Virus record (IMG/VR): IMGVR_UViG_2541047846_000004
DNA from: a virus
Lineage: Duplodnaviria; Heunggongvirae; Uroviricota; Caudoviricetes
Length of the DNA: 5,629 nucleotides
Direction: 5' to 3' (one strand)
In this document: piece after piece, positions 2,948 to 5,323 of the stretch
How positions within the stretch are numbered: the stretch's first letter is position 1
How the letters are laid out: each line of letters begins with the position of its first letter
The notes under the pieces: model-generated
Told to the model about the DNA's origin: nothing
The model's database searches: none
What the model saw: the letters and a program-made list of their open reading frames with translations, nothing else
Made by a program: the position numbers and the translations under genes

Positions 2948-2976
2948 GGGCGCCAGAAATGGCGCCTTTTTTATTT
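2948..2976 (+). terminator. Putative rho-independent terminator hairpin between J and stf
   Basis: GGCGCC (2949..2954) and GGCGCC (2961..2966) are self-complementary and form a 6-bp GC stem (a possible G-U pair extends it to 7) around the 6-nt loop AGAAAT. The stem is followed immediately by TTTTTTATTT (2967..2976). It sits 19 nt after the J stop codon. Confidence 0.6.
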
Positions 2977-2981
2977 GTGGA
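2977..2981 (+). promoter_or_regulatory. Shine-Dalgarno sequence for the stf-like gene
   Basis: GGAG lies within GTGGAGTGAATATG, 6 nt upstream of ATG 2988. Confidence 0.5.
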
Positions 2982-2987
2982 GTGAAT

Positions 2988-5048
2988 ATGGCAGTACAGA
3001 TTTCAGGCGTGCTGAAAGACGGTGCAGGAAAACCGATACAGAACTGCACCATTCAGCTCAAAGCAAAACGTAACAGCACCACGGTTGTGGTGAACACGGT
3101 GGCCTCAGAAAATCCGGATGAAGCCGGACGTTACAGCATGGATGTCGAGTATGGCCAGTACAGCGTTATCCTGCTGGTTGAAGGTTTTCCGCCTTCACAT
3201 GCCGGGGCCATCACCGTGTATGAGGATTCTAAGCCGGGGACATTGAATGATTTTCTGGGCGCTGCAACAGAAGATGATGTTCGTCCGGAGGCACTGTATC
3301 GTTTTGAAAAGATGGTGGAAGAGGTGGCACGCAACGCTGAAGCCGCCTCTCAGAGCGCAGCGGCAGCAAAGAAATCAGAAACAGCAGCGGCATCGTCCAG
3401 GAATGCGGCGAAAACATCAGAGACGAATGCAGGTAACAGCGCGAAAGCGGCAGCTTCTTCAAAAACAGCCGCACAAAACGCAGCAACAGCGGCAGAACGT
3501 TCAGAGACAAATGCCCGTGCGTCAGAAGAAGCCTCCGCAGACAGTGAAGAGGCTTCCCGCCGTAATGCAGAGTCAGCCGCTGAAAATGCCGGAGTCGCCA
3601 CCACAAAAGCGCGGGAGGCCGCAGCAGACGCAACAAAGGCCGGGCAGAAAAAGGATGAGGCTCTGTCGGCAGCGACACGGGCTGAAAAGGCGGCAGACCG
3701 CGCAGAAGTCGCAGCGGAAGTGACTGCAGAGCCCTATGCGAATATAGTGCCGCCGCTGCCTGATGTGTGGATACCGTTTAACGATTCACTGGATATGATT
3801 GCGGGTTTTTCTCCGGGCTATAAAAAAATAGCTATTGGTGACGATGTGGTTCAGGTCGCCAGTGATAAACAGGTTAATTTCAGTCGCGCATCAACGGCAA
3901 CATATATCAACAAATCTGGCGAACTGAAAACGGCGGAAATTAATGAGCCGCGATTTGAGTGTGATGGCCTGCTTATTGAGGGACAAAGAACGAACTACAT
4001 GCTCAATTCGGAAAGTCCAGCCAGCTGGGGGAAGTCATCAAACATGGATGTGCCCGAAACCGGGACAGATAGTTTTGGTTTTACTTATGGAAAGTTTGTC
4101 TGCAACGATTCTCTGGTTGGGCAAACTTCGGCTATTAATATGGCATCAATTGCTGCAACAAAGTCAGTTGATGTCTCAGGCGATAACAAGTACGTGACAA
4201 CCTCATGCCGTTTTAAAACAGAACGACAGGTAAGGTTACGTATACGGTTTGATAAGTATGATGGTAGTGCAACAACTTTTCTTGGCGATGCGTACATTGA
4301 TACGCAAACGCTTGAAATTAATATGACAGGTGGGGCTGCCGGCAGAATTACGGCACGAGTCAGGAAGGATAAGACCACAGGCTGGATTTTTGCAGAGGCA
4401 ACGATTCAGGCAATTGATGGTGAGTTAAAAATAGGCTCTCAGATACAGTATTCTCCTGAGCGGGGTGGGGCAACAGTATCTGGTGACTATATTTATCTTG
4501 CCACCCCACAAGTAGAGAATGGGCCGTGTGTATCATCATTTATTATTTCAGGAGGCAGCGCAACGACAAGAGCCAGTGATTTGGTTAGTATCCCCACCAG
4601 AAATAATCTTTATAAGTTACCATTTACTTTTTTACTTGAGATTCATAAAAACTGGGATATTGCACCAAACGCCGCACCCCGCGTGTGGGATATAGCAGCA
4701 GCCAATACCGGGCAATCAGCAATTGCAGCAATCAACAGAGGTAGTGGTAAGTTATATATGAGTCTGTCAAACCCTTCAGGCTTGTATGTTAATAGCGCAG
4801 CGACAGATGTATTTGCAGAGAAAACCACATTTGGATGTATTGCAAAAGCTGATGGTCACTTTCATGTGGTGACAAATGGTAAAGCGGTTAATGAAGTTTA
4901 TTGTGAATATAATGGTGTGACCGCTGATAAAAATATCCGATTTGGAGGGCAGACGAATACTGGAGAACGACATCTGTTTGGCCATATTCGCAATTTCCGC
5001 ATATGGCATAAAGAATTAAATGACAGGCAATTAAAAGAGGTCGTATGA
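2988..5048 (+). CDS. stf: Side tail fibre protein (Stf-like): lambda-Stf-type N-terminal attachment domain, Ala/Ser-rich stalk, divergent C-terminal lectin-like (LamG-type) receptor-binding domain
   Basis: The N-terminus MAVQISGVLKDGAGKPIQNCTIQLKAKRNSTTVVVNT.ASENPDEAGRYSMDVEYGQYSVILLVEGFPPSHAGAITVYEDSKPGTLNDFL is near-identical to my recollection of lambda Stf (MAVKISGVLKDG...). The ORF track starts at GTG 2982, but ATG 2988 matches the homologue start and has a GGAG Shine-Dalgarno. The C-terminal end (...NIRFGGQTNTGERHLFGHIRNFRIWHKELNDRQLKEV) resembles the terminal strand motif of concanavalin-A-like / LamG jelly-roll domains. Stop is TGA 5046..5048. Confidence 0.85.
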   Translation: MAVQISGVLKDGAGKPIQNCTIQLKAKRNSTTVVVNTVASENPDEAGRYSMDVEYGQYSVILLVEGFPPSHAGAITVYEDSKPGTLNDFLGAATEDDVRPEALYRFEKMVEEVARNAEAASQSAAAAKKSETAAASSRNAAKTSETNAGNSAKAAASSKTAAQNAATAAERSETNARASEEASADSEEASRRNAESAAENAGVATTKAREAAADATKAGQKKDEALSAATRAEKAADRAEVAAEVTAEPYANIVPPLPDVWIPFNDSLDMIAGFSPGYKKIAIGDDVVQVASDKQVNFSRASTATYINKSGELKTAEINEPRFECDGLLIEGQRTNYMLNSESPASWGKSSNMDVPETGTDSFGFTYGKFVCNDSLVGQTSAINMASIAATKSVDVSGDNKYVTTSCRFKTERQVRLRIRFDKYDGSATTFLGDAYIDTQTLEINMTGGAAGRITARVRKDKTTGWIFAEATIQAIDGELKIGSQIQYSPERGGATVSGDYIYLATPQVENGPCVSSFIISGGSATTRASDLVSIPTRNNLYKLPFTFLLEIHKNWDIAPNAAPRVWDIAAANTGQSAIAAINRGSGKLYMSLSNPSGLYVNSAATDVFAEKTTFGCIAKADGHFHVVTNGKAVNEVYCEYNGVTADKNIRFGGQTNTGERHLFGHIRNFRIWHKELNDRQLKEVV
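3340..3720 (+). repeat. Low-complexity Ala/Ser/Thr/Glu-rich repeat region encoding the fibre stalk (coiled-coil-like)
   Basis: The protein segment ASQSAAAAKKSETAAASSRNAAKTSETNAGNSAKAAASSKTAAQNAATAAERSETNARASEEAS... contains recurring SETNA / AAKxSE motifs. The DNA is GCN-codon rich and produces spurious long ORFs in other frames and on the minus strand (3247..3723 +, 3229..3678 -, 3350..3604 -). Confidence 0.6.
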
Positions 5049-5323
5049 AAGATTTAACTTTGAAGTTTCATGACAAACTGCAGTTTAAGGCCTTCCTGTC
5101 ATCTCTTGACTGGGAGGAGGATGAAGACCTCCAGAATAAACTGTTAGTCGATGAAATTGGTTTCACCTACACAGAAACAGGGGTAACAGAAGAGGGAGAA
5201 CCTGTCTGTGTCCGGAATGACGGTTATTTTGTCAACATTCGCATTCTTGATGACTTGTTTGATGTTTCTGTATTCTCTGATTATGTCGTGGAGCTGGAAA
5301 CACCGCTTCGGGAATGGAGCTGA
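5045..5323 (+). CDS. Hypothetical small acidic protein (92 aa), translationally coupled to stf; function unknown (candidate fibre-associated accessory or chaperone)
   Basis: Its ATG 5045..5047 overlaps the stf stop TGA 5046..5048 (ATGA overlap), and GAGG 5037..5040 precedes it. The product is strongly acidic (D/E-rich: ...DWEEDEDLQNKLLVDEIGFTYTETGVTEEGEP...). It shares the AT-rich composition of the stf C-terminal domain. I do not recognise the family. Confidence 0.6.
   Translation: MKDLTLKFHDKLQFKAFLSSLDWEEDEDLQNKLLVDEIGFTYTETGVTEEGEPVCVRNDGYFVNIRILDDLFDVSVFSDYVVELETPLREWS

Follow-up and report, generated by a model that had tools for sequence, protein, structure and literature searches.

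The window analysed here is a stretch of 5,629 nucleotides, taken from a tailed-phage record of IMG/VR (IMGVR_UViG_2541047846_000004; Caudoviricetes). It covers the distal end of a lambda-like block of tail genes and holds the C-terminal two thirds of the central fibre gene J (to position 2929), a hairpin, a ribosome-binding site, the side tail fibre gene stf and two small open reading frames (ORFs), and its entire length is 99% identical at the DNA level to coliphage 21 (OL657228) and also to several evolved lambda hybrids. The stf gene is a 686-amino-acid (aa) ORF on the plus strand, running from ATG 2988 to a stop codon at 5046-5048. Our explanation of the whole locus, to which we assign a probability of about 0.7, is that stf specifies a lambdoid side fibre of the phage 21 type, built from a lambda-type collar, a coiled coil and a two-domain concanavalin-A-like (ConA-like) glycan-binding head that moves between phages with a 92-aa partner. 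The features that carry this explanation are as follows.

2988..5048, plus strand: side tail fibre gene stf (ORF; DNA identity to phage 21; match to phrog_1419)
2988..3260, plus strand: collar (tail-attachment) domain of the lambda Stf type, aa 1-91 (PF08400; alignment with 9e7m)
3291..3731, plus strand: Ala/Glu/Ser-rich heptad coiled-coil stalk, aa 102-248 (periodicity analysis)
3747..3809, plus strand: junction motif PPLPDVWIPFNDSLDMIAGF, aa 254-274, start of the exchangeable head cassette (conservation; DNA homology with a P2-like prophage, L002)
3870..4622, plus strand: head domain 1, a large ConA-like beta-sandwich, about aa 295-545, borders approximate (homology with a gene transfer agent head-spike fibre)
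4623..5045, plus strand: head domain 2, a Laminin_G_3-type jelly roll ending in RHLFGHIRNFRIWHKELNDRQL, about aa 546-686, borders approximate (PF13385; AlphaFold2 model)
5045..5323, plus strand: 92-aa acidic protein whose start overlaps the stf stop (ATGA), conserved partner of the head cassette

Sequence similarity far beyond chance confirms ORF 2988-5048 as a true gene. The phrog_1419 profile scores 1102 bits against the 686-aa protein, and the gene at the matching place in phage 21, CPT_21_22, lies directly after J and is annotated 'side tail fiber'. Of 5426 complete Escherichia coli genomes, 576 contain a copy that spans 80% or more of the gene, and many of these copies are 100% identical. 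The gene is annotated in phage 21, widespread in E. coli and already known, and its discovery value is modest. An alternative GTG start at 2982 falls within the GGAG of the ribosome-binding site, so that ATG 2988 is the likely start.

The initial annotation had described a mosaic fibre with three segments, namely a lambda-like N-terminus of about 110 aa that docks the fibre on the tail, an Ala/Ser-rich stalk and a C-terminal part unrelated to the distal region of lambda Stf. All three segments are present, with slightly different borders. PF08400 matches aa 1-131 with 230 bits against a cut-off of 26.6, and the solved N-domain of lambda Stf (9e7m chain Ta) aligns with aa 1-94 at an E-value of 1.4e-49. 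Homology to lambda DNA spans 2971-3337 with 85% identity and then ceases at about aa 117; at the protein level, aa 1-158 share 74% identity with lambda orf-401. In Ur-lambda, residues 1-91 of Stf form the collar domain, twelve copies of which ring the gpV/gpM junction, and residues 92-101 form a flexible linker that is followed by a trimeric coiled coil (PMC12617516); the docking role given to the N-terminus thus agrees with its alignment to a collar that forms a ring on the lambda tail. The stalk, aa 102-248, consists of 21 uninterrupted heptads (147 residues) without proline. Its strongest hydrophobic periodicity is 3.5 residues, with a power reached by none of 2000 shuffles, and the composition of aa 111-250 is 36% Ala, 14% Glu and 11% Ser. 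It is 53% identical to the coiled-coil region of lambda Stf, though the region is of low complexity. If it forms a canonical coiled coil, the stalk would be about 22 nm long, and by analogy with lambda it is probably trimeric.

The protein therefore belongs with lambda Stf in its attachment and shaft parts only. It shares with Ur-lambda Stf (P03764; N-domain 9e7m/9mgh) a gene position after J, a PF08400 collar, a short flexible linker and an Ala-rich coiled-coil shaft. In contrast to lambda Stf, the shaft has about half the length (147 residues versus about 290), and there is neither a hinge nor a gp37-like, OmpC-binding distal needle; instead, the tip is formed by the ConA-like head with its two domains, and an unrelated gene for a 92-aa protein comes next. 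A Tfa (Caudo_TAP) gene, which accompanies the gp37-like tip in the lambda type, is also missing, and a Pfam search of the ORFs downstream of stf gave no match to Caudo_TAP or to any other Pfam family. Likewise, lom, which lies between J and stf in lambda, is absent from this position (compared with L007, 3905-4650).

The remaining 436 residues (aa 251-686), which we call the head, show no similarity to lambda Stf in sequence comparison. An AlphaFold2 (AF2) model of the head is all-beta, with a mean predicted local distance difference test score (pLDDT) of 94.2 and a predicted template modelling score (pTM) of 0.90. Its strongest structural matches are AbnA domain 4, neurotoxin HCN, CBM40, pentraxins and LamG, all of them ConA-like sandwiches, and it has the two-sheet jelly-roll beta-sandwich that defines the concanavalin A-like superfamily. 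Together, these results show that the head consists of two ConA-like jelly rolls and is all-beta. A single LamG-type domain had been expected at the C-terminus; this holds for the last ~140 aa and does not hold for the head as a whole, since the larger first domain is a homologue of the spike fibre of the Rhodobacter capsulatus gene transfer agent (RcGTA). In the second domain, PF13385 (Laminin_G_3) aligns with aa 560-681, including the terminal motif, at E-values of 2e-5 to 5e-5 and 23.9-25.1 bits (23.9 bits in the Pfam check), below the cut-off of 27.6. The same family matches 29 of 52 head relatives at E <= 0.001, the best at 1.9e-11, and the motif HLFGHIRNFRIWHKELNDRQL at aa 662-682 is among the best-conserved blocks of the family. 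An internal duplication was considered and rejected: hhalign gave a probability of 0.1% for domain 1 against domain 2, with no sequence similarity, so the head is not a recent tandem duplication.

The first head domain links the fibre to an experimentally studied protein. NCBIfam NF048003 ('GTA_spike_fiber', for gene transfer agent, GTA) matches aa 329-529 with 55.3 bits (cut-off 36), and the alignment takes in nearly the whole profile, positions 1-181 of 182. Rcc01080, the RcGTA head-spike fibre (NF048003; chain F3 of 6tb9), aligns with aa 297-543 at an E-value of 1.4e-9, and RefSeq labels fragments of the stf gene 'phage head spike fiber domain-containing protein'. The motifs common to domain 1 and Rcc01080 are RA(S/T)xATY, xEPR(F/Y), LL(I/L)Ex...TN and QxE...SS.IPT...TRAxD. 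The two proteins differ in their settings. Rcc01080 is located at the vertices of the capsid, where its single chain is held in place through an (I/L)-G repeat at the N-terminus; the domain studied here is carried at the far end of a tail fibre, after a collar domain and a coiled coil. The (I/L)-G repeat, by which GTA head spikes plug into the pentameric base of the capsid spike, is absent from the sequence and the N-terminus is the Stf collar domain; the protein therefore has a GTA spike domain and is not itself a head spike. Rcc01080 (325 aa) also lacks a counterpart of the C-terminal Laminin_G_3 domain, as it aligns only with aa 297-543, and on the GTA side the 92-aa partner was not found in the alphaproteobacterial loci fetched.

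Rcc01080 has been described as a flexible fibre on the RcGTA capsid spikes and as a beta-rich, lectin-like receptor-binding protein (PMC7296036, PMC10218006). When fluorescently tagged, it bound fully to capsulated wild-type cells and at ~4% to a capsule-less mutant, and its AlphaFold model was reported to show two lobes rich in beta structure, 'as in lectins' (PMC10218006). There is no solved structure of the homologous head domain, because Rcc01080 is experimentally resolved only at residues 2-10 (PMC7296036).

An exhaustive profile-free search with the 436-aa head as query retrieved 2889 cluster representatives (clusters at 50% identity) at E <= 0.001, including 72 at E <= 1e-30. In the best 150 relatives, which range from 375 to 1481 aa, the head is mostly at or near the C-terminal end. 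Over 52 aligned relatives, the conserved blocks are aa 251-274, 299-336, 503-540 and 659-682, and the variable cores are aa 345-500 in domain 1 and aa 560-650 in domain 2. This pattern fits a constant scaffold with variable binding surfaces, and the conserved blocks also offer homology for recombination.

From the fold and from capsule binding by the RcGTA homologue, we infer that the head binds a surface sugar and that the receptor is a polysaccharide. Three chains would form one fibre and, as in Ur-lambda, contribute their collar domains to a ring that encircles the tail immediately above its tip. The lectin-like heads would then reversibly bind an E. coli surface glycan (O-antigen, capsule or lipopolysaccharide (LPS) core), and the virion would thereby stay on the cell until J, the central fibre, meets its porin (LamB for phage 21). 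Specificity would probably lie in the variable cores of both head domains, with the conserved terminal strands as scaffold, and the fibre would presumably act as a non-essential accelerator of adsorption. Reversible glycan binding is the likeliest function because the RcGTA homologue binds capsule, because the J protein of phage 21 uses LamB (PMC11336670) and because there is precedent among siphophages, in that the primary receptors of side or lateral fibres in lambda-like, T1-like and T5-like phages are generally O-antigen or LPS core and are non-essential (PMC8594841, PMC11990801, PMC12312913).

Several observations weigh against this picture. The Laminin_G_3 score of this protein is under the Pfam cut-off, as given above, and the 92-aa protein has no sequence or fold similarity to known fibre chaperones (Tfa/Caudo_TAP, PF02413). 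The ConA-like and LamG folds also serve in protein binding, and LamG, pentraxin and neurotoxin HCN-type domains are established as making protein-protein contacts. Each RcGTA spike carries one chain of the homologue (PMC7296036). The sole published comment found on binding by this fibre or a coliphage homologue is a prediction that the homologous domain of IrisVonRoten Gp22 'could contribute' to receptor interaction (PMC11990801); the literature on engineered lambda-STF chimeras and the phage 21 genome announcement hold nothing on this head. Finally, E331 and E510 are invariant in the 52 relatives, with glutamates at both places in the pairwise alignment with Rcc01080, and judged from this conservation they could form a catalytic or metal site.

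The protein contacts of these folds, together with the binding of lambda Stf itself to OmpC (PMC12617516), leave some room for a head that recognizes an outer-membrane protein and not a carbohydrate. We consider this unlikely: among the homologues studied by experiment, the closest is a binder of capsular polysaccharide (PMC10218006), and carbohydrate-binding modules associated with sialic acid and arabinan are among the top fold matches. Moreover, the very diverse sequences of the head cores (2889 clusters at 50% identity), in phage groups whose lateral fibres track O-antigen diversity (PMC8594841), fit glycans better than a protein receptor. The invariant glutamates, to which the equally invariant R322/R528 may be added, bear on a further alternative, in which the head has enzymatic activity, as a glycanase, lyase or esterase that cleaves or modifies O-antigen or capsule, and the fibre acts like a tailspike. 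However, these residues lie in the conserved terminal strands, outside the variable core, which fits a scaffold role; the strongest structural matches listed above are all non-catalytic binding modules, the Pfam and NCBIfam searches returned no glycoside hydrolase or lyase family, and the RcGTA homologue is described as a capsule binder and not as a degrader (PMC10218006). An enzymatic head is accordingly improbable in our judgement, and we retain a glycan-binding head as the working explanation.

The head is not confined to lambdoid phages. The homology to lambda that ends at about aa 117 and the presence of the same head behind quite different N-termini bear out the mosaicism proposed at the outset. 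The N-termini found in front of it are phage_tail_N, P2-type Phage_tail_fib (PF12571), Phage_fiber_2 (PF03406) and Tail_spike_N. The head module occurs in 218 phage records from at least six phage groups, among them lambdoid, Dhillonvirus, T5-like (IrisVonRoten), 9g-like (JenP1) and rV5-like (pangalan) phages. Exchange with P2-like phages is seen in variants of the P2-type tail fibre H in E. coli P2-like prophages (P0087, locus L002), which carry the head together with the 92-aa gene and a 97-aa gene. There, DNA homology starts exactly at window position 3747 (aa 254) and continues with 88% identity to 5618, so that the shared stretch comprises the head and both small ORFs. The homology start coincides with the nearly invariant motif PLPDVWIPFNDSL, and positions P8, W11, P13 and G23 of the junction motif are nearly invariant in the 52 relatives. 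The L002 fibre differs from stf in its N-terminus, which is the P2 Phage_tail_fib domain (PF12571) on a contractile-tail baseplate, and just downstream of the shared stretch lies what is left of the P2 chaperone gene that was displaced (Caudo_TAP, 74 aa). Taken together, these data show that the head travels between phage types as a cassette that begins at PLPDVWIPFNDSL and includes the 92-aa gene.

More distant versions of the 436-aa head end the proximal lateral tail fibre Gp22 of the Tequintavirus IrisVonRoten (Bas32) and fibres of Drexlerviridae, Dhillonvirus, Queuovirinae (JenP1) and Vequintavirus. Head identity in those groups is 36-57% among the records listed (IrisVonRoten 52%, pangalan 39.9%), and a homologue of the 92-aa gene comes next, with a stop/start overlap. 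In contrast to stf, the Gp22-type fibres have different N-terminal attachment and shaft parts. The C-terminus of Gp22 has been called a 'galectin-like domain' and a possible additional receptor-binding domain in the BASEL-2 paper (PMC11990801). The branched fibres LtfA/LtfB of DT57C were considered as an analogue and set aside, as they are of the S74 autocleaving chaperone type with a different kind of tip (PMC4728585). The head is also found, at 39-71% identity, in records named 'Campylobacter phage' (C13, A116, C2) and 'Listeria phage' (LM 4-11-1). These look like mislabelled or contaminated entries, because the genome sizes are typical of T5-like, 9g-like and rV5-like coliphages.

Interrupted copies of the fibre gene were encountered as well. 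In several phages and viral contigs the gene is broken near aa 384-393 of the head. The phage records (4A7, Lambda_4C10, 1W and 3W) have transposase genes annotated at this place; in E. coli GN02323, ISEc52 lies inside the gene, and in three truncated viral loci (L052, L053, L055) the 92-aa gene no longer adjoins. Such recurrent breaks suggest repeated inactivation of a non-essential fibre.

The 92-aa protein is acidic and alpha/beta, and it is called 'hypothetical' in all records seen. A homologue lies behind the fibre gene in each divergent lineage checked, mostly with a stop/start overlap, at head identities of 88% (L002), 61% (L004), 52% (IrisVonRoten), 45% (L005), 39.9% (pangalan) and 33% (L006); the homologue in the rV5-like pangalan scores 51.6 bits to the profile. 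The gene is immediately downstream in 82 of the 89 loci fetched via the head, a count that overstates independence because many loci are near-identical. The divergent lineages are thus stronger evidence for the linkage than the number of loci. The seven exceptions are three fibres truncated by insertion sequences, three alphaproteobacterial loci with partial matches only and one betaproteobacterial locus. The 92-aa gene was also found in 145 phage records and, among the 40 listed, adjoins the fibre gene wherever that is annotated. Given the translational coupling and the strict co-inheritance, the function of the 92-aa protein is probably tied to the head; it would help to fold or assemble the head, or remain on it as an accessory subunit. 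We propose more tentatively, and with the odds somewhat against it, that the family is a new kind of fibre-tip accessory, either a chaperone for a non-trimeric, lectin-type head or a receptor-shaping subunit, and that the fibre ends in a bouquet of three independent two-domain lectin heads, unlike the intertwined trimeric tips of solved fibres.

The T5-like loci raise another possibility, namely that the head mainly serves to dock a second, distal fibre, for which the 92-aa protein would be the adaptor, and not to bind a receptor. IrisVonRoten Gp22 has been modelled as a proximal fibre that carries a T-shaped distal fibre (PMC11990801), and the gene order in IrisVonRoten, and likewise in L005, is fibre, 92-aa gene and second fibre. 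In these T5-like phages the neighbouring gene encodes the T-shaped fibre that is thought to attach, whereas the phage 21 fibre is apparently unbranched: phage 21, the P2-like prophage and related E. coli prophages have no second fibre gene, and their loci continue with a small membrane protein and then with cargo (sitABCD) or other phage genes. The published model of Gp22 has the lectin-like domain protruding at the fibre end as a possible extra receptor-binding domain and does not make it the docking site (PMC11990801). We therefore give the docking role very little credence, and a terminal glycan-binding head with its small partner is the explanation we carry forward.

The interest of this cassette lies in host range, since side and lateral fibres set which E. 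coli strains siphophages or engineered lambda particles reach behind O-antigen and capsule. The head type is widespread (about a tenth of complete E. coli genomes, in addition to the phage records and clusters counted above). A self-contained lectin-like cassette, a fixed junction motif and a small partner gene amount to a recipe for swapping the head onto lambda-based delivery particles and for receptor testing. Earlier knowledge comprises the annotation of the phage 21 gene and the galectin-like domain named in print for a homologue. What is new here is the mobility of the head as a cassette among phage groups, with a translationally coupled 92-aa partner as a candidate assembly or accessory factor.

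The other features of the window flank the fibre gene and its partner.

2948..2976, plus strand: terminator-like hairpin GGGCGCC-AGAAAT-GGCGCC with a T-run, between J and stf (consensus scan; sequence)
2979..2982, plus strand: ribosome-binding site GGAG, five bases before the ATG (sequence; annotated ribosome-binding site in phage 21)
5336..5629, plus strand: 97-aa predicted membrane protein (phrog_1443; two transmembrane domains in the phage 21 annotation)

The C-terminal domains of J end at 2929 and stf begins at 2988, in the same order as in phage 21 and E. coli ATCC 11775, so that only 58 bp (2930-2987), holding the hairpin and the ribosome-binding site, separate the two genes. The phage 21 record marks a terminator at the place of the hairpin, and the same role is predicted here. 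That record also has a CII site of the pattern TTGYN6TTGY, at window positions 3473-3486 on the minus strand inside stf, which we dismissed; the pattern carries no weight because it occurs once in the window with 1.5 occurrences expected by chance. Long ORFs in other frames (149, 158 and 84 aa), on both strands across 3229-3723, overlap the stretch that encodes the Ala-rich coiled coil, and the lambda record annotates a comparable antisense 'orf206b' within its stf. These ORFs are most simply by-products of the Ala-rich, GC-biased composition.

The upstream part of the window contains a 724-bp tandem direct duplication in gene J. Copy 1 (440-1163) and copy 2 (1164-1887) differ by three mismatches, and the stretch 440-1887 is 724 bp shorter in phage 21, ev017 and other records. 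Since 724 is not divisible by three, the duplication disrupts the reading frame of J, so that one ORF (19-1164) comes to a stop and another (1106-2929) takes up the frame again. The duplication junction was found in none of the 5426 complete E. coli genomes, and the duplication most likely arose in assembly, or else represents a rare variant in which J is inactivated.

Downstream of the partner, the 97-aa gene also follows the 92-aa gene in the P2-like prophage L002 (81% identity) and in L004 (80%). The T5-like relatives examined (IrisVonRoten, L005) lack it and have another fibre gene in its place, and no comparable gene is annotated after the partner in the rV5-like pangalan. The 97-aa membrane protein is thus linked to the cassette only in close relatives. 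It has no match in Pfam or NCBIfam and may be a moron expressed in the lysogen, for example an exclusion or surface-modifying factor. A defence or exclusion role was looked for with PADLOC and set aside, as the fibre, the 92-aa and the 97-aa proteins gave no matches. Just past the end of the window, phage 21 and E. coli ATCC 11775 both carry sitABCD, an operon for an iron/manganese transporter, after the cassette and on the opposite strand (L001, 8997-12446; L008, 7734-11183); it is a virulence-associated prophage cargo. Many IMG/VR contigs with this fibre stop exactly 584 bp past the stf stop, as the window does.

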